A stretch of 64,000 bases of DNA from Thermodesulfobacteriota bacterium (GCA_029246845.1 JAQWMJ010000006.1:1-64000), one strand, 5' to 3'. Shown: positions 5,168 to 59,394, numbered from the stretch's first letter. Translations and numbers: made by a program. Notes: a model not told the origin generated them from the sequence alone.

Positions 5168-5243
5168 TGGCTCCGGAGGAGGGATTTGAACCCCCGACAA
5201 AGTGATTAACAGTCACCTGCTCTGCCAGCTGAGCTACTCCGGA
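5168..5243 (-). tRNA. tRNA-Asn(GTT), CCA encoded
   Basis: TCCGGAGTAGCTCAGCTGGCAGAGCAGGTGACT-GTT-AATCACTTTGTCGGGGGTTCAAATCCCTCCTCCGGAGCCA cloverleaf. Confidence 0.95.
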
Positions 5244-20232: not shown

Positions 20233-20306
20233 GGGCCCATAGCTCAGTTGGTTAGAGCTCCCGGCTCATAACCGGGCGGTCACTGGTTCGAATCCAGTTG
20301 GGCCCA
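20233..20306 (+). tRNA. tRNA with CAT anticodon, probably tRNA-Ile2 (lysidine); CCA not encoded
   Basis: GGGCCCATAGCTCAGTTGGTTAGAGCTCCCGGCT-CAT-AACCGGG...TTCGAATCC..TGGGCCCA; paired G1-C72, so not initiator; resembles Ile2 sequences. Confidence 0.9.
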
Positions 20307-21448: not shown

Positions 21449-21808
21449 TAAGTGGGTTGAGTGATCGCTTGCATCTTTACTTTGTGAAGTGTAAGAGGAA
21501 AGTCCGAACTCCTAAAGGAATTGGTGCTGGGTAACCCCCAGGTGTCGAAAGGCAATGGAAAGTGCCACAGAAAATAACCGCCATTAATAAACACGTGATA
21601 TTAGTGGTAAGGGTGAAAAGGTGGTGTAAGAGACCACCGCAGTTTCTGGTGACAGAGGCTGGCAAGGCAAACCCCATCAGGAGAAAGACCATGTATAGAA
21701 GCTGGTATCCTTTCCAAATGCTTCGGGGTGGGTCGCTTGAGATGATAAGTAATTATTGTCCTAGATAGATGATCACATAAAACAGAATTCGGCTTACTAA
21801 CCCACTTA
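21449..21808 (+). ncRNA. rnpB: RNase P RNA (type A)
   Basis: GAGGAAAGTCC, GGAAAGTGCCACAGAAA, GGGTGAAAAGGTGGTGTAAGAGACCACC, ACAGAATTCGGCTTAC; P1 TAAGTGGGTT/AACCCACTTA. Confidence 0.96.
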
Positions 21809-22999
21809 CTTTATTTTAATTTTATAAAAATTCCTTTTACCTAGCTTAATTTTCCAAGGACTTTTAAAGGTAGGTAGAATCTCTAGTGAGGTAAATTTCT
21901 CGCCATTTATTTCAACTGCATTATCCTTTATAAGCCTTTTAAGTTCTGACCTTGAGAAGGATTCATTAGTAGCCTCAGAGAGTATATCTAAAAACTTTTT
22001 TCCTTTTATTTCAATTTCGATTTCATCTAAATCATCAGGGAAATCTTTTCTACTAAACTTACTTTCAAAATTATTTCTAGCTAACTCTGATAACTCTAGG
22101 CTATGATATTCTTCTACGACTTTAGAACCCAAAGCCTTCTTCCTCTCTAGCGGATTACCAATATCACCAAAAAACCCTCTATCGTTTGCAAAAAGAAGTT
22201 CAATATATCTGTCCATTAATTCATCTGATATAGACATAATTTTTCCAAAAATTTCATCATAGGAATCATTCAACCCAATATAATTATTTAAGCTTTTTGA
22301 CATCTTCATTTTACCGTCAAGGCCTTCAAGTATCGGGAGAAACACGCCCACTTGTTCAGGGACATTAAAAGCTTTTTGAATTTGTCTACCAAGTAAGATA
22401 TTAAATCTCTGATCTGTTCCACCTAGTTCTACATCGGAAGATAAGACAACTGAATCGTAGGCTTGAAGTATTGGATAAAGGAACTCTGTAACAGTTATAG
22501 CCTCCCCTGCTTTGTACCTTTTTTTAAAATCATCTCTCTCGAGCAATCTTGCAACATTCTCTAATGAGGACAGGTTAATAAGATCTTTCAAATCAAACTT
22601 ATTAAACCATTTAGAATTATAAAAAATTTGAACTTTTTCTTTCTCTAGGACCTTAAACATCTGGTCTTTATAGGTTGCCGCATTTACTTCAATCTCATCA
22701 GCGCTTAGGGGCTTCCTCGTCTTGTCTCTTCCAGTTGGATCACCAATCATAGCTGTAAAGTCACCGATTAAAAAATTAATTTCATGGCCTAAGTCTTGGA
22801 ATACCTTCAATTTCTTTAACAATAAAGAATGTCCTAGATGTAAATCGGAAGACGTAGGATCAAAGCCCGCCTTAATTTTAAGTGGCTCTTTTTTTTCAAA
22901 CGATTTAGATAATTTTTCTAAAAGTTCTGTTTCTGGAACTATGTCCACTACATTCTCAAGTATTATTTTAAGCTGCTTTTTTGGTTCAAGAAATTCCAT
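21806..22999 (-). CDS. tyrS: Tyrosine--tRNA ligase
   Basis: GFDPT..DLHLGH, GGTDQ, KMSKS, S4 domain. Confidence 0.97.
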   Translation of the reverse strand: MEFLEPKKQLKIILENVVDIVPETELLEKLSKSFEKKEPLKIKAGFDPTSSDLHLGHSLLLKKLKVFQDLGHEINFLIGDFTAMIGDPTGRDKTRKPLSADEIEVNAATYKDQMFKVLEKEKVQIFYNSKWFNKFDLKDLINLSSLENVARLLERDDFKKRYKAGEAITVTEFLYPILQAYDSVVLSSDVELGGTDQRFNILLGRQIQKAFNVPEQVGVFLPILEGLDGKMKMSKSLNNYIGLNDSYDEIFGKIMSISDELMDRYIELLFANDRGFFGDIGNPLERKKALGSKVVEEYHSLELSELARNNFESKFSRKDFPDDLDEIEIEIKGKKFLDILSEATNESFSRSELKRLIKDNAVEINGEKFTSLEILPTFKSPWKIKLGKRNFYKIKIK

Positions 23000-42576: not shown

Positions 42577-42648
42577 TGAGCACGAGTGGATTTGAACCAC
42601 CGACCTCTTGCATGTCAAGCAAGCGCTCTCCCCCTGAGCTACGCGCTC
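42577..42648 (-). tRNA. tRNA-Val(GAC); CCA not encoded
   Basis: GAGCGCGTAGCTCAGGGGGAGAGCGCTTGCTT-GAC-ATGCAAGAGGTCGGTGGTTCAAATCCACTCGTGCTCA. Confidence 0.93.
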
Positions 42649-53345: not shown

Positions 53346-54707
53346 TTATTTATCCCAAGGATGCTTCTTCTCGGGTTTTTGACTATATGGATTCTCTTTA
53401 TCTGGATGGAAATACTTAAAAGTATTAACATGTTGATCAGTATAAGAACCTGGAGGATAATATTTATCATAAAAATCCAAATCCATATTCTGAGCCTGGA
53501 AAACTAACCTCATATACATTGGGTCGACATAAGCTGGAAAAGATCCATAAGTGTCATGAATATAGTCAGCAACAGACTTAACAATCTCATTTGTTGTATC
53601 AGTAGGCCTTGGTGCTTTAACTAAGTGTTTGTCTGGCTCTTCATATGGAAAAGGTTTCTTGGAGTCCCAAGCGGCCCATTTATGTTCATCCATTTTATCA
53701 TATGCATCAGACATTGTTTTATAATATGGAGGGCAGTAGCCTTCAAAAATTCCATCTTTACCAACAGGTCTAGTCGGACCAGACTTTGGTTGTTCAAACC
53801 TAAAACCTAATCCTTTAAAAAGTTCAGGATTTGATCCTAGCGTGAACCTAGGTATGAGACCAGTAAATGTCCAACCACCTAACCCAAGAGCTTGAAGAGC
53901 TAGAGACATGTTCTGGCAAATAAATGCTTGTTCAACATTAAGACCAGTCAGTATTCTAACTTCAAGATCATATAATGACATTTTGACTTCTTCTTTTATT
54001 CTTCCAGAAGCAATCCATTTGTCTTGACCACATGAGCGATTATTTTTTTCATCCCAAATATTAAATGCATAAGTACTACTGCAATAAAGTGTCAATAAAT
54101 TTAAATACTCCTCAGTTATATCAGTAACAGGGATAAACGTTGTAGTACCAGCCTTGTTTGTATTCCATTGGTTAAAGTCAAAAAGACCAGGCATCTTGTC
54201 TGGCAAGTTGGCCCTACCGTCCTCAAGCTTAACAAGCCCTTCTCGATACAATTCTAACAACCTGTCAATTTTATCATTTACATTAAGTCTAAAAAAGACA
54301 TCAAGTTCTTTATCTTTAGGTAACATGTTTTTAACATCTACATAATAAAGACCGGAGTCATTAGTGAAAAAAAGCTCTGTACCGTGGTTATTACATGCAG
54401 AAGGCCATGTTCTGCCTGTCCATTGACATAATAAATCAATTCCATTCTCAGGTGGTAAATCTGCAAGGCATAGTCCGGTTAAACCGGTACCTGCCCAAAC
54501 CAACATAGCTTCTTGAAATTCAGTTAAAGGAACAGGGTCTATTTTTGACTTATACCCCAGAGAGCTATCTGAAGGGAGCTCCATTCCTAGACCAAACCTA
54601 CGAGACCTTCTATTAAAAATAGCTTCAAACAAAGGGTACTTTAAAGCAGCTTCGTAATTAACCTTTCCATTTCCCTTTCCATTTCCATTTTCATTTTTTT
54701 TTGTCAT
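53346..54707 (-). CDS. Uncharacterised protein with nitroreductase/SagB-like (FMN-binding) motifs
   Basis: AIFNRRSRRF, RTWPSA, EQAFICQNMSLALQALGLG. Confidence 0.55.
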   Translation of the reverse strand: MTKKNENGNGKGNGKVNYEAALKYPLFEAIFNRRSRRFGLGMELPSDSSLGYKSKIDPVPLTEFQEAMLVWAGTGLTGLCLADLPPENGIDLLCQWTGRTWPSACNNHGTELFFTNDSGLYYVDVKNMLPKDKELDVFFRLNVNDKIDRLLELYREGLVKLEDGRANLPDKMPGLFDFNQWNTNKAGTTTFIPVTDITEEYLNLLTLYCSSTYAFNIWDEKNNRSCGQDKWIASGRIKEEVKMSLYDLEVRILTGLNVEQAFICQNMSLALQALGLGGWTFTGLIPRFTLGSNPELFKGLGFRFEQPKSGPTRPVGKDGIFEGYCPPYYKTMSDAYDKMDEHKWAAWDSKKPFPYEEPDKHLVKAPRPTDTTNEIVKSVADYIHDTYGSFPAYVDPMYMRLVFQAQNMDLDFYDKYYPPGSYTDQHVNTFKYFHPDKENPYSQKPEKKHPWDK

Positions 54708-55211: not shown

Positions 55212-56054
55212 CTATTTCTCAATAGGCGCTTGAACAAGATTTCCCCATTCAGTCCAGGATCCATCATAGTTTTTAACACTATTGTATCCAAGGAGATAAG
55301 TAAGAACAAACCAAGTGTGAGAAGACCTCTCACCTATTCTGCAATAAGCAATAACATCGTCTTCTGGCTTTAAACCAGCACCGTTTTGATATATTTCAAG
55401 CAACTCGTCTGCAGATTTAAATGTTCCATCTTCATTTGCTGCAGTTGCCCAAGGGACACTTTTAGCGTTAGGAATATGTCCACCTCTAAGTGCACCTTCT
55501 TGAGGATATGCTTCCATGTGAAGCATCTCACCGCTAAATTCTTTAGGTGATCGAACGTCAATCAAGGCCCCCAAAGAAGCGCTATGTTCTTTAACCTCTT
55601 CCCTAAATGCTCTAATGCCAAGATTAACATCAGCAACTTTATAATTTGTATTTTCTAAAGAAGGGACATCTTTGGAAAGCGGCTTCTTCTCTTCAATCCA
55701 CTTTTGTCTTCCCCCGTTCATTATAATACATTTCTCATGGCCATAAATTTTGAATGTCCAAAATGCGTAGCATGCCCACCAGTTGCTCTTATCTCCATAA
55801 AAAACAATCGTATCTTCGGGTGAAATTCCCTTTGAAGAAAGCAGTTTTTCAAAATTATCTTTGTCTATGTAGTCTCTTATAAGATTATCTTGAAGCTCTG
55901 TCTCCCAGTCTATTTTTATTGCTCCTTCAATATGACCTATGTCATATAAAAGAATATCTTCGTTAGATTCAAGTATCTTAATTCCTGGTTTATCCTTATT
56001 CTCTAAGACCCAGTCAGTTGAAACTAACAATTCCGGATTTTTATATTCTGCCAT
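55212..56054 (-). CDS. Tandem rhodanese sulfurtransferase (CysA/SseA type)
   Basis: [20 protein letters not shown], active-site [25 protein letters not shown]. Confidence 0.93.
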
Positions 56055-56066
56055 TTTACTCCTCCA

Positions 56067-56090
56067 TCTGGCCTTATTAATAAAGCCAGA
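56067..56090 (-). promoter_or_regulatory. Hairpin immediately 5' of the sulfurtransferase Shine-Dalgarno
   Basis: TCTGGCTTTA-TTAA-TAAGGCCAGA (10-bp stem including one G-U pair), followed by TGGAGGAGTAAAATG. Confidence 0.45.
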
Positions 56091-56125
56091 ATTAAATTAA
56101 ATTTTAAATTTATAACTAACCAATA

Positions 56126-56215
56126 CTACTTGTAGTTACAACAACATAAGTTTGAAAAGTTACAACAACATGTATCTACTTCACTAACAAGCGATACAAA
56201 CAATGTTTTAACCAT
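56126..56215 (-). CDS. Cysteine-rich leader peptide (29 aa) MVKTLFVSLVSEVDTCCCNFSNLCCCNYK
   Basis: AGGAG SD 6 nt before ATG; two TGT-TGT-TGT-AAC runs; TAG stop 71 nt before the sulfurtransferase ATG; below the ORF-track size cutoff. Confidence 0.75.
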   Translation of the reverse strand: MVKTLFVSLVSEVDTCCCNFSNLCCCNYK

Positions 56216-56249
56216 AACAAACTCCTAAACTTTTTGTAACTCAAAGAGG

Positions 56250-56271
56250 AAAGATACCGAACGGTATCTTC
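56250..56271 (-). terminator. Strong hairpin after the riboswitch (terminator or expression platform)
   Basis: GAAGATACC-GTTC-GGTATCTTT followed by CCTCTTTG (imperfect U tail). Confidence 0.5.
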
Positions 56272-56272
56272 A

Positions 56273-56324
56273 CCCTATTTAGCAATTATTTAATGTCGCT
56301 GCAATTAGAGTTAAATGACGACAT
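56273..56324 (-). promoter_or_regulatory. SAM-II-like riboswitch aptamer (H-type pseudoknot)
   Basis: AUGUCGUC-AUUUAA-CUCUA-AUUGC-AGCGACAU-UAAAUAAUU-GCUAAA-UAGGG: P1 AUGUCG/CGACAU, conserved UUU, UUGC and GCUAAA, pseudoknot CUCUA/UAGGG; 52 nt; upstream of sulfur genes. Confidence 0.75.
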
Positions 56325-56328
56325 ATAG

Positions 56329-56358
56329 ATTATAGCACTGAAATAAAATAAAAATCAA
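56329..56358 (-). promoter_or_regulatory. Extended -10 promoter driving the riboswitch leader
   Basis: TTGATT-18 nt-TATAAT with TGc extension; predicted +1 at about 56322-56324, the 5' end of the aptamer. Confidence 0.65.
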
Positions 56359-56400
56359 TATTATATTTAAATAAGTAATTCATTAGGTTATTATTTTTAC

Positions 56401-56649
56401 ATGAGTGAAGTTGAAGAAAAAACAGTCGATCCTGAATCTAAGGATATTTCGGCGTCTAAAGAAGAGGCTGATGTTCAAGCGACTCCAGAAGAACTAGAGG
56501 AAGAAGTGCACGTAGTTCCACCTTACCCTGAAAGAGTTCCTAACGCTGAGAAAGGTGCCGATCACGCACACGCTTATGTGATGTTAAAAATATTGTTTCT
56601 CTTGGTAGTTTTTTCTTTAGTAATAGCAAAATTCACCTCACCTTTTTAG
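56401..56649 (+). CDS. Small hypothetical protein with acidic N-terminus and single C-terminal TM helix
   Basis: 82-aa ORF with protein-like composition; TATTAT -10 box 6 nt upstream. Confidence 0.6.
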   Translation: MSEVEEKTVDPESKDISASKEEADVQATPEELEEEVHVVPPYPERVPNAEKGADHAHAYVMLKILFLLVVFSLVIAKFTSPF

Positions 56650-59394
56650 TTGACTAATATGCTTTTTTAAAAATTTTGCTGTTTCTGACTTTTTTGCAAA
56701 AGGAAAGTCTTTCTTCAAACCTTGAAAAGAAAGATGTCCTCCTGCTGAGCCACCATCGGGTCCAAGATCAATTATGTAATCAGAACCATTAATCACTTCC
56801 ATATTATGCTCAATAATTACTATAGTACTCCCCGAATCTCTAAGCTGATAGATAACCCCAAGAAGTTTATCAATATCTTCATAATGAAGACCTATGGTAG
56901 GTTCGTCTAAAATATAAAAGGTTTTTCCGGTATTTTTTTTAATTAACTCCTTCGAAAGCTTAATTCTTTGAGCTTCACCACCTGACAGAGTGGTTGCATC
57001 TTGCCCTAGCTTTAAATAACCAAGACCTACGGAATTAATTATATTAATTTTATTTTGTAAAATAGGAAATCCTATAAAGAAGTCGTTTGCCTCAGAAAAA
57101 GTCATATTTAAAACATCAGTAATATTTTTTCCTCTATAGAAGATACTAAGTGTTTCCAGATCAAATCTTTTACCCTCACATGAGTCACATAAAACATTAA
57201 CATCAGGCAGAAAACTCATTTCAATTCTTATACTTCCAGCACCTGAACACTCCGAGCAACTTCCTTCCTTTACATTAAAACTAAATCTCCCTGGTGAAAA
57301 TCCTTTAATTTTAGAATCTGGTAATGAAGCAAAAACCTCTCTAATGGTCCCAAAGATTCCAGTATAAGTAGCAGGGTTAGACCTTGATGTCCTTCCTATG
57401 GGCGACTGATTAATATTAATAATTTTATCAAAATTATCCTCACCACTGACACTAGTAAGGAAATCAGGTTTAGTTTTATTTTTAGAATTAATTAGTGATG
57501 AAATCACTTCATATATCGTTTGAACAACCAGTGTACTTTTTCCAGAACCCGAAACTCCAGTGACACAAGTAATCTTACCAACAGGAATATCAACATCAAT
57601 TGATTTTAAATTATTTAAGACTGCACCTTTTATTGATAAATAATTTTTTATTTTGGATTTACTTTCAATGATTTTAACTTTCTTATTTCTAGAAAGGTAC
57701 TGCCCTGTAAGTGAGGCTTTGTTCTTCGCTATAGACATTGGAGATCCATCAGCAACAACCAAGCCGCCATTAAATCCGGCACCTGGACCTATATCAATTA
57801 TATAATCAGCACTTTTTATAGTTTCCTCATCATGTTCAACTACTACCAAAGTATTTCCTCTATCCTTTAATAATTTTAAAGTATTTAATAGCATTTTATT
57901 GTCTCTAGGATGCAATCCAATCGTGGGTTCATCTAAAACATAAGTTATACCAGTAAGGTTAGCACCTAACTGAGAAGCAAGCCTTATTCTCTGGGCTTCA
58001 CCACCCGAAAGAGTTGGCGCGGTTCTATCAAGGGTTAAATACCCGAGGCTCACGCTTAGAAGAAAGTCCAATCGAGAAATGATTTCATCTTTAATCTTAG
58101 CCCAAATTAATTTTGATGTACCATTAAATTTAATTTTTTTGAAGAATTTATAACACTCTAAGATAGTTAGATTGCATACCTGTGAGATGTTTTTTTTATT
58201 TATAAAAACACTAAGTGCCTCCTCCCTCAATCTCAAGCCATTACAATTTAGACACTTTTCAATTTTTCTATACTTTGAAAGATTAGTTCTAATTTCTTCC
58301 GCACGTGAAGAACTAAACCACTTTTCTAAGATTTGGACTACGCCCTCAAAAGTTTCATTGTCGCCATAAAAAATTAGTGATTGGGTATCTGGACCGAGGT
58401 CATCAAATGGGGTATTAGGATTAATATCATTTTGATTTAAAAAACTATTTATAATTTTTTTATAAAAAGCTGAATCTTTAAATGGTGCTAAGGCTCCTTT
58501 TTTTATTGACTTTGAAGGATCAGGAACTATTGATTTCAAATCAAACATTTCAAAGTACCCCAACCCTTCGCATTCTAAGCACTGGCCATAAGGGCTATTG
58601 TAAGAAAAAAACCTGGGGGATATTTCCGGAAATGTAGCACTACAATTCGAACATGCCATATTTCGATTAAAGATTTTTTTTATTTTCTCTGACTCTATAA
58701 CAACCAAGCCTTCACCGTACTGAAGTGCTGTCTTAATTGATTCAAAAATTCTCAATGAGTTCCTTTTATTTACTTTGAGACTATCAATATAAACTTCTAT
58801 AGTATGTTTTTTTTGTTTTTCCAAGGTAATTTTTTCATTTAATGAAAATAAGTCACCATCTATTCGAATCTTAGAAAATAATTTTGATGCATCAGAGATT
58901 TCTTTTTTAAACTCACCTTTTTTACCTAGCGCTATTGGATAATAAATTTCTATATTTTTGGTTGCAAAATCACGATTTACTATAGAAACGATAGAATCTA
59001 AAGAAGTTGCATCTATCAAAGATTCACATTCATAACATTTAACTTCTCCAACTCTTGCATATAGCAATCTTAGAAAATCATATATCTCTGTTATTGTTGC
59101 CACAGTAGATCTGGGATTTCTCATGAATGTTTTTTGGTCAACTGAAATTGTTGGTGACAATCCAGAAATGAAATCTAAGTCTGGTTTTTCAAACTTATCT
59201 ATAAACTGTCTAGCATAATTTGAAAGTGATTCTAAATATTTTCTTTGGCCTTCTGCAAAAATTGTGTCAAAGGCTAAAGTGGATTTTCCAGATCCGCTCA
59301 CACCTGTAAGCACTGTTATTGAACCACGTGGGATCTGTACATCTATATTTTTTAAATTATTCTGCCTAATACCTTTAATAGTTATATTCTTCAC
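56638..59394 (-). CDS. uvrA: Excinuclease ABC subunit A
   Basis: Two GVSGSGKS Walker A motifs, LSGGEAQRI twice, zinc fingers. Confidence 0.97.
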   Translation of the reverse strand: MKNITIKGIRQNNLKNIDVQIPRGSITVLTGVSGSGKSTLAFDTIFAEGQRKYLESLSNYARQFIDKFEKPDLDFISGLSPTISVDQKTFMRNPRSTVATITEIYDFLRLLYARVGEVKCYECESLIDATSLDSIVSIVNRDFATKNIEIYYPIALGKKGEFKKEISDASKLFSKIRIDGDLFSLNEKITLEKQKKHTIEVYIDSLKVNKRNSLRIFESIKTALQYGEGLVVIESEKIKKIFNRNMACSNCSATFPEISPRFFSYNSPYGQCLECEGLGYFEMFDLKSIVPDPSKSIKKGALAPFKDSAFYKKIINSFLNQNDINPNTPFDDLGPDTQSLIFYGDNETFEGVVQILEKWFSSSRAEEIRTNLSKYRKIEKCLNCNGLRLREEALSVFINKKNISQVCNLTILECYKFFKKIKFNGTSKLIWAKIKDEIISRLDFLLSVSLGYLTLDRTAPTLSGGEAQRIRLASQLGANLTGITYVLDEPTIGLHPRDNKMLLNTLKLLKDRGNTLVVVEHDEETIKSADYIIDIGPGAGFNGGLVVADGSPMSIAKNKASLTGQYLSRNKKVKIIESKSKIKNYLSIKGAVLNNLKSIDVDIPVGKITCVTGVSGSGKSTLVVQTIYEVISSLINSKNKTKPDFLTSVSGEDNFDKIININQSPIGRTSRSNPATYTGIFGTIREVFASLPDSKIKGFSPGRFSFNVKEGSCSECSGAGSIRIEMSFLPDVNVLCDSCEGKRFDLETLSIFYRGKNITDVLNMTFSEANDFFIGFPILQNKINIINSVGLGYLKLGQDATTLSGGEAQRIKLSKELIKKNTGKTFYILDEPTIGLHYEDIDKLLGVIYQLRDSGSTIVIIEHNMEVINGSDYIIDLGPDGGSAGGHLSFQGLKKDFPFAKKSETAKFLKKHISQLKR

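Follow-up and report, generated by a model that had tools for sequence, protein, structure and literature searches.

A probable SAM-II-class riboswitch and a poly-cysteine leader reading frame ahead of a rhodanese-SufU-like operon in an ocean Thermodesulfobacteriota genome

The DNA considered here is a stretch of 64,000 nucleotides (nt) from a Thermodesulfobacteriota bacterium (GCA_029246845.1, JAQWMJ010000006.1:1-64000), referred to as the window, and the subject is a 52-nt element on its minus strand at 56273-56324. The element lies between a predicted promoter and the genes for a two-domain rhodanese and a NifU_N/SufU-like protein, with a long leader in between that holds two conserved hairpins and a short open reading frame (ORF) rich in cysteine (Cys) codons. 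Judged from its sequence, it is very probably the aptamer of an S-adenosylmethionine (SAM) riboswitch of the SAM-II class, standing at the 5' end of the rhodanese-SufU-like operon mRNA. The features of the locus in the order of transcription are:

56329..56358, minus strand: promoter with -35 box TTGATT (56358-56353), 18-nt spacer and TG-extended -10 box TATAAT (56334-56329)
56273..56324, minus strand: SAM-II-type aptamer (RF00521, 35.1 bits), reading AUGUCGUCAUUUAACUCUAAUUGCAGCGACAUUAAAUAAUUGCUAAAUAGGG from 56324 to 56273
56250..56271, minus strand: hairpin H, a 9-bp stem GAAGAUACC/GGUAUCUUU with loop GUUC and a conserved 1x1 mismatch at its flank (U56272 x C56249)
56243..56249, minus strand: segment c, with an invariant CUCU (56248-56245) in the pyrimidine tract UUUCCUCUUU
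56237..56242, minus strand: segment d, GAGUUA, complementary to the aptamer loop UAACUC (56313-56308)
56226-56222, minus strand: Shine-Dalgarno sequence AGGAG
56215-56126, minus strand: 29-codon leader ORF, MVKTLFVSLVSEVDTCCCNFSNLCCCNYK, with two runs of three Cys codons
56067..56090, minus strand: second conserved hairpin (UCUGGC...GCCAGA), directly 5' of the rhodanese ribosome-binding site GGAGGAG (56065-56059)
56054-55212, minus strand: two-domain rhodanese, 280 amino acids (aa; PF00581, 110.1 bits)
55200-54772, minus strand: NifU_N/SufU-like protein, 142 aa (PF01592, 81.6 bits)

A permissive local cmscan of the reverse complement lists eight matches at E <= 10, among which RF00521 (SAM_alpha, SAM-II) is the best-scoring family, with 35.1 bits over 56332-56258 (E 2.3e-6) and a full-length match to the model. 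The SAM-II long-loop family (RF01726) reaches 24.2 bits in the same scan against a gathering score of 44 (E 0.022). SAM-V shares its general fold and ligand with SAM-II and is known from AT-rich marine bacteria. The preliminary description of this DNA had seen a slight SAM-V character in a CAUUU variant; the SAM_V model (RF01826) is matched nowhere in the genome at E <= 1 and does not figure among the eight local matches, and a SAM-V identity was dropped. The SAM-II layout proposed in the same description is upheld by the RF00521 score, just under the cut-off, and by a position-by-position match to a solved structure (PMC3303485). The window aptamer scores 0.9 bits under the Rfam gathering score of 36, and a gathering-mode scan of the whole window accordingly returns RNase P RNA and three tRNAs and misses the SAM-II element. 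The match is nonetheless judged to be beyond chance because its genome-wide E is 1.3e-6, because none of 14 control genomes is positive for RF00521 at E <= 0.01, and because the element recurs in 19/19 genomes of the family.

The structure of the metX SAM-II riboswitch provides a guide to the individual positions. There, U10, U11 and U12 of loop L1 lie in the groove of P2b, SAM is stacked between U21 and G22 and paired with the unpaired U44, and the pairs U21-A45, U20-A46 and U18-A48 are formed with A19 opposite A47 (PMC3303485). The parts of the window aptamer, all on the minus strand, correspond to these as follows:

G56322-U56318 with G56299-C56295: P1
C56317-A56311: L1 (CAUUUAA), including UUU at 56315-56313, equivalent to U10-U12
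C56310-A56306 (CUCUA), then A56305: 5' strand of P2a; A56305 is equivalent to A19
U56304-C56301 (UUGC): 5' strand of P2b; U56304, U56303 are equivalent to U20, U21 and G56302, C56301 to G22, C23
56294-56284: L3, the A-rich linker
G56283, C56282, U56281 (unpaired), A56280, A56279, then A56278 (GCUAAA): 3' strand of P2b; G56283, C56282 are equivalent to G42, C43, U56281 to the unpaired U44, A56280, A56279 to A45, A46 and A56278 to A47
U56277, A56276, G56275, G56274, G56273 (UAGGG): 3' strand of P2a, called b below

By this alignment, the window element retains every position that is described as contacting SAM in the solved SAM-II. The UUU of L1, UUGC, and GCUAAA with its unpaired U are invariant in 29 leaders and fall on conserved RF00521 columns. 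The helices differ more from the family: CUCUA/UAGGG stands in place of the G+C-rich P2a of the Rfam consensus with its complementarity kept, and P1 also departs from the consensus sequence while still being complementary. Across the 29 leaders the 14 aptamer pairs are standard in 93.3% of 406 cells, versus 32-52% when the partners are slid.

Two observations weigh against the identification. Every copy in the family scores under the RF00521 gathering score, the best relatives reaching 35.8-35.9 bits, and none of the 14 aptamer pairs is changed on both sides within the family, three varying on one side only, as they do in shuffles. The lack of double-sided covariation is put down to family sequences that are too alike, and the support for the aptamer is conservation together with the Rfam model, not fresh covariation. 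Both observations would also suit a conserved leader structure whose likeness to SAM-II is due to chance or descent and which no longer senses SAM, or senses a related ligand such as S-adenosylhomocysteine. Such a leader would not be expected to keep every SAM-contacting position, including the unpaired U and the adjoining U-A pair, to match at an E of ~1e-6 with silent controls, or to control a regulon of sulfur and methionine genes, and no other Rfam family scores higher. This alternative is considered very improbable, and a SAM-II aptamer is the reading adopted here.

The start of the transcript agrees with this layout. A promoter scan finds the promoter to be sigma-70-like, with 10/12 hexamer matches and the TG present, and the first P1 base, G56322, is 7 nt past the end of the -10 box (56329). 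The -10 box is 5-6 nt from GUCGUC in all four copies of the leader in the genome. The earlier placement of the aptamer at the predicted transcription start thus agrees with the scan, to which an RNA contig ending at 56322 adds a weak hint. Part of the window stretch is contained in 20 public runs, all marine or seawater, of which 14 are recorded as RNA. Contigs from four RNA runs (four studies) were placed on the window, where they cover the aptamer, the leader ORF, the rhodanese gene and part of the SufU-like gene; one of them spans 55836-56322, and 56323-56700 is not covered by the contigs of these runs. Three further RNA contigs (86, 86 and 169 nt) of a paralogous leader end at the base equivalent to 56322, the aptamer start. 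These ends are a weak hint at the predicted transcript start, which contigs cannot prove. Contigs also bridge hairpin H into the leader ORF and rhodanese gene, so read-through occurs.

The window element has paralogues. The assembly it comes from (1.04 Mb, 91% complete) carries four RF00521 copies, at 35.1, 30.5, 27.3 and 23.5 bits, with a common build of promoter, aptamer, variable hairpin, UUUCCUCUU, GAGUUACA, Shine-Dalgarno sequence and ATG. Their contexts are a ThrC-like/ThiS-like gene pair (MetM/MetO-like), a sulfate-assimilation operon, an SBP56 gene and the rhodanese-SufU operon. A covariance model, R1, built from 29 leaders gives 38 matches and finds the element in 19/19 family genomes, with about four copies in each of two genera and one in each of four others, and in 0/101 other genomes of the phylum. 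RF00521 itself matches 16/18 family relatives and gives near-threshold matches in 5/33 genomes of one other family. From the loci, 36 distinct elements were extracted, 35 of them complete, which are distributed as follows:

ThrC-family gene downstream: 18 copies, no poly-Cys leader ORF
Rhodanese downstream: 7 copies, poly-Cys leader ORF present
Sulfite reductase downstream: 7 copies, poly-Cys leader ORF present
SBP56 downstream: 3 copies, poly-Cys leader ORF present
Decayed copy: 1

The seven rhodanese-class leaders have aptamers identical to the window copy at 45-52 of 52 positions; for synonymous third positions of the rhodanese genes the range is 46-91%. The rhodanese gene is present in 18/19 family genomes. 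In the four single-copy genera the space before it holds only the hairpin ahead of the ribosome site, with no aptamer or Cys ORF, and two regions upstream of sulfite reductase (genera g2 and g5) likewise lack an aptamer and a leader ORF of the poly-Cys type. Because the single-copy genera have neither aptamer nor Cys ORF at these places, the cassette appears to have been added to these operons in two genera.

The decayed copy (L154, G004:C13:35663-35757; also L183) keeps the 5' half of the aptamer but no longer has GCUAAA, a hairpin platform or a Cys run. The leader downstream of it is similar to the leader ORF of the SBP56 class.

Elements from another family of the same phylum score 35.9, 32.6 and 23.4 bits with RF00521 (L149 1984-2062, minus strand; L150 778-856, minus strand; L152 153-227, plus strand). 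They are built in the classical way: the P2a 3' strand contains GAGG, an AUG lies 5 nt beyond it, and P1 shows one compensatory change. The gene behind them encodes an unknown protein of 175-216 aa, with an integrase-like ORF nearby in L149, the sole locus examined.

The genes behind the copies suggest what is controlled. The preliminary description had called the gene context unusual for SAM-II; this holds for the rhodanese and SufU genes at the window site and does not hold for the lineage, in which 18/35 complete copies precede a methionine-pathway-like pair. In the genome of the window this pair consists of a ThrC-family gene (L036 244-1767, G000:C12; TIGR00260, 277.7 bits) with an N-terminal Cys-rich segment and, directly behind it, a 92-aa ThiS/MoaD-family gene. 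A second ThrC is encoded elsewhere (G000:C49), MetX was not found in this 91% complete genome, and the MetY and ThrB models give only weak matches. MetM, a homologue of ThrC, is frequently annotated in error as threonine synthase, and MetO is a sulfur carrier (10.1101/2024.10.14.618325, GapMind). The ThrC-like/ThiS-like pair fits the MetM/MetO homocysteine pathway. Going by the gene families, the regulon would comprise methionine synthesis and sulfur acquisition, as expected for a SAM sensor.

The NCBIfam matches of the rhodanese and SufU-like genes are all under the curated cut-offs. With close kin excluded, the best named relatives of the rhodanese are in metagenome-assembled genomes labelled Thermodesulfobacteriota (69%) and Spirochaetia (73%), and RF00521 finds nothing in the genomes reached via these relatives. 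A regular expression for the aptamer gives two chance-like matches at 80 rhodanese loci of other phyla, the pattern being crude and recovering 31/38 control loci.

For the second hairpin of the leader, RNAalifold pairs columns 242-249 with 266-273, two pairs being changed on both sides, and a hairpin at the same place precedes the rhodanese in genus g3 (L157), which lacks the riboswitch. RNAalifold also proposed two long-range pairings, one of the aptamer 5' half (GUCAUUU..CUCUA, 56310-56322) with the rhodanese ribosome site (UGGAG..AAAAUGG, 56052-56066), the other of the P1 3' strand (56295-56304) with the second Cys-codon run (56137-56145). Each pair is found in 7-8/8 leaders, in columns that are all invariant, and may be coincidence; neither pairing was adopted. 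For the first, the presence of the same site in the riboswitch-less genus g3 was a further reason.

The poly-Cys ORF starts ~107 nt into the transcript behind the Shine-Dalgarno sequence AGGAG and is therefore not leaderless. An ORF of this kind is present in 17 of the 35 complete elements; its length is 21-29 codons (32 in one locus read that contains N), and the Cys run ends 0-3 codons before the stop. It is confined to the sulfur-acquisition leaders, comprising three operon types, and never stands before the ThrC-like gene; further copies occur in metagenomes. Conservation is seen in the frame, the Shine-Dalgarno sequence and the run of Cys at the end, whereas the remaining peptide diverges in sequence and length, C-terminal motifs across genera being CCCNYK, CCCSFK and SCCCN. 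The codon after the Cys run is Asn AAC or Ser AGC, and, as read from the sequences, this alternation keeps complementarity to GAGUUACA.

Short ORFs with consecutive Cys codons have been described in mycobacteria as cysteine-responsive attenuators that act via ribosome stalling (Canestrari et al., 10.1101/834739). The ORF might instead encode a functional small Cys-rich peptide, such as a carrier of sulfur or metal, behind a real riboswitch. A good Shine-Dalgarno sequence and a C-terminal motif kept across genera would suit a peptide of this kind. Free divergence outside the Cys run, with lengths of 21-29 codons, would not, and the AAC/AGC alternation after the run preserves pairing with GAGUUACA. 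The ORF is also found only in sulfur-acquisition leaders and never before the ThrC-like gene, and the mycobacterial poly-Cys ORFs that were tested are attenuators (10.1101/834739). A functional peptide is judged distinctly improbable, and the ORF is treated here as a candidate regulatory leader.

Between aptamer and leader ORF lies the presumed expression platform. In hairpin H, positions 1-7 counted from the base are paired in 28-33 of the 33 leaders, each by several types of base pair, and RNAalifold lists pairs of the hairpin changed on both sides, showing that it covaries. Position 0 is nearly always a mismatch, being paired in 1/33 leaders. Strand b, which closes P2a, is AGGG in the window and AGAG or GGAG elsewhere, with CGAG or CGGG in three leaders. 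It can pair with the loop CUCU (P2a), with 4/4 pairs in 29/33 leaders, or with segment c, with 4/4 pairs in 30/33 leaders and 3/4 in the other 3/33. The pairing of b with c extends hairpin H by -4.6 +/- 0.3 kcal/mol and is present in the unconstrained minimum free energy (MFE) structure of 25/32 leaders. The loop in turn is complementary to segment d at 6/6 positions in 33/33 leaders, the variants GGGUUA (three leaders) and GAGUUG (one) keeping the pairing via G-U. Metagenome leaders (n=58) give the same segment pairing counts, with loop:d in 58/58.

By complementarity, strand b has two mutually exclusive partners, the loop CUCU and c. As the loop can also pair with d, two exclusive states follow, one with loop:b formed and c and d free, the other with b:c and loop:d. 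On these grounds the leader is probably a SAM-sensing off switch of the SAM-II type that works through a toggle of b, loop and c. SAM would lock b onto the loop and free c and d. Without SAM, b:c would lengthen hairpin H and d could hold the loop. High SAM would then turn the operon down.

How the toggle would be passed on to expression is a more tentative matter. The freed c and d are anti-Shine-Dalgarno-like and may mask the ribosome site or start of the next ORF; such translational masking is the likeliest output step of those considered, though it is held with less than even confidence. Locking the aptamer raises the number of leaders whose MFE structure pairs c with the Shine-Dalgarno core from 4/32 (unconstrained) to 15/32, and d pairs with the start region in several folded ThrC-class leaders. 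Other folding results do not support masking. The ensemble means run in the wrong direction, with an unpaired probability of the Shine-Dalgarno region of 0.44 locked vs 0.36 apo in 15 leader-class RNAs and 0.41 vs 0.35 in 17 ThrC-class RNAs. Accessibility moves in the expected direction in only 5/15 and 5/17 of these RNAs, respectively, and the core is paired in 22/32 locked vs 20/32 free MFE structures. The folding program handles neither the loop:d pairing nor the SAM pseudoknot. Taken together, the folding tests of an expression effect via the ribosome site are equivocal.

Premature termination would be the main alternative way for a SAM-II switch to act here. High SAM would release an RNA of ~75-85 nt at hairpin H and the U/C tract UUUCCUCUUU behind it. 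This possibility gains from a sister variant of the leader found in a pattern scan of metagenome contigs, which gave 84 stretches, 80 of them fetched (L163-L242), and 63 distinct leaders. About 42/63 show the architecture of the window leader, while 20 distinct leaders on marine contigs (e.g. L164, L163, L203), designated class T, share this aptamer, their loop reading CUCA and their strand b CGAG or CGGG. In class T the aptamer is joined to a canonical intrinsic terminator (-10.2 to -13.1 kcal/mol) with a U-run, followed in order by GGGUUGA, a Shine-Dalgarno sequence and small lysine-rich ORFs. In 18/19 class T leaders long enough to fold, b can form pairs with the loop and 3' arm of the terminator, an antiterminator-like arrangement.

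The pyrimidine tract behind hairpin H sits exactly where class T has its clean U-tract terminator, the SAM-II leaders of S. meliloti have terminators behind the aptamer (PMC9373788), and the short RNA contigs (86, 86 and 169 nt) of the paralogous leader begin at the aptamer start. At the window locus, however, a terminator scan of 55900-56700 returns no sites, the tract behind the hairpin being interrupted by C's and without a clean U-tract. Furthermore, b lengthens hairpin H without competing with it, no antiterminator is visible, and RNA contigs cross the hairpin into the leader ORF and rhodanese gene. Termination at hairpin H is therefore regarded as unlikely. Rho is encoded in the genome, so Rho-dependent polarity is possible.

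Class T was not found in 120 genomes of the phylum, viral contigs have no matches to the aptamer pattern, and the flanks of one class T contig were not found in the 19 family genomes, in which only the aptamer part is matched. Of eight class T ORFs, none has a Pfam family and one has a weak PHROG match. Separately, a tandem second SAM-II-like aptamer (P1 GUGG/CCAC, GAUUUG, AUUGCA, GCUAAA) lies behind the class T aptamer and terminator in L172, L203 and L206.

With the toggling SAM-II switch as the preferred reading, the next ORF in the window is the 29-codon poly-Cys leader, the translation of which would set expression of the operon. Stalling at its Cys codons under cysteine scarcity would tune the operon, and the leader would read the supply of both SAM and cysteine. 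A broader and more speculative proposal, doubtful in its entirety, is that this ~270-nt leader integrates SAM, through the toggling SAM-II element, with cysteinyl-tRNA, through the poly-Cys ORF. The cassette would have been copied in two genera to three extra operons (sulfate assimilation, SBP56 and rhodanese-SufU), giving a SAM and Cys regulon in a 1-Mb ocean genome. Rhodanese-SufU might then feed persulfide sulfur to a thiocarboxylate homocysteine route of the MetM/MetO type.

At the level of the regulon, the arrangement resembles the S-box (SAM-I) system of Firmicutes, in which one type of SAM-sensing leader stands before several operons for methionine, cysteine and sulfur uptake. In the family studied here, too, one SAM-sensing leader type would have been copied before several operons. 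The S-box aptamer has a fold unrelated to SAM-II, and its expression platforms are terminator-based. SAM-V is set apart from the window element by the lack of RF01826 matches given above.

The aptamer itself is closest to classical SAM-II (RF00521), known from the metX riboswitch of the Sargasso Sea metagenome (PDB 2QWY; PMC3303485, PMC3326309). Shared features are the H-type pseudoknot with P1, L1 (UUU), P2a and P2b, the UUGC/GCUAAA core with one unpaired U, the A.A mismatch at A19/A47, and the location at the 5' end of a sulfur or methionine mRNA. In the classical form the 3' strand of P2a doubles as the Shine-Dalgarno sequence, with the start codon immediately behind it, whereas here the strand is only Shine-Dalgarno-like. 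Between this strand and the real ribosome site, ~50 nt downstream, lie a hairpin, a second CUCU and GAGUUA. Further departures from classical SAM-II are the host lineage and the contexts of rhodanese/SufU, SBP56 and sulfate assimilation.

Control at a distance has a parallel in the metA and metZ SAM-II leaders of S. meliloti, which place a hairpin or terminator between the aptamer and the start codon used and yield short riboswitch RNAs alongside the read-through mRNA (PMC9373788). Those leaders have clear Rho-independent terminators and, in the account available from that source, no leader ORF, in contrast to the poor U-tract, second partner for b and poly-Cys ORF of the window. The leader ORF in turn resembles the mycobacterial poly-Cys attenuators, which are short ORFs with consecutive Cys codons ahead of cysteine and sulfur genes where stalling is proposed to read cysteine (10.1101/834739). 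The mycobacterial ORFs are described as leaderless, whereas the ORF in the window has a Shine-Dalgarno sequence, lies behind a riboswitch and carries its Cys run at the very end.

SAM-II is treated as a mainly alphaproteobacterial riboswitch (PMC9373788; also the Rfam family name), and its classical output is to mask the ribosome site directly. Candidatus Dadabacteria, a class of Thermodesulfobacteriota in the NCBI taxonomy and a compatible though unproven placement for this marine genome, are the subject of a genomic survey in which neither riboswitches nor methionine are mentioned (PMC8115339). A literature search found no report joining SAM-II riboswitches with Dadabacteria or with rhodanese (subscription journals not covered), nor one of a SAM-II design with a poly-Cys ORF (subscription journals and unsearched PMC articles not covered). 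The SAM-II pocket would here be wired differently, serving four operons and standing in series with a leader ORF of Cys codons. If the proposal is true, the leader would be a compact natural control element with two inputs, SAM and cysteine. It would also offer a means of defining the sulfur-acquisition regulon of an uncultured but abundant ocean bacterium, one that includes rhodanese-SufU and SBP56 genes. The hairpin extension of the window type and the true terminator of class T would then be sister platforms on one aptamer, useful for the study of how expression platforms evolve.

Several further features lie near the operon or elsewhere in the window. An ORF of 453 aa directly behind the SufU-like gene (53346-54707, minus strand) has no Pfam or NCBIfam match. 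Divergent from the riboswitch promoter, an ORF of 82 aa (56401-56649, plus strand) has an acidic N-terminus and a hydrophobic C-terminus; it matches no family and is not covered by contigs of the four RNA runs. Other genera (L157-L160) seem to have a similar divergent frame beside the rhodanese gene. The RNase P RNA of the window is of class A (284.7 bits, 21449-21812, plus strand), and the three tRNAs are at 20233-20306 (plus strand), 42577-42648 (minus strand) and 5171-5243 (minus strand).

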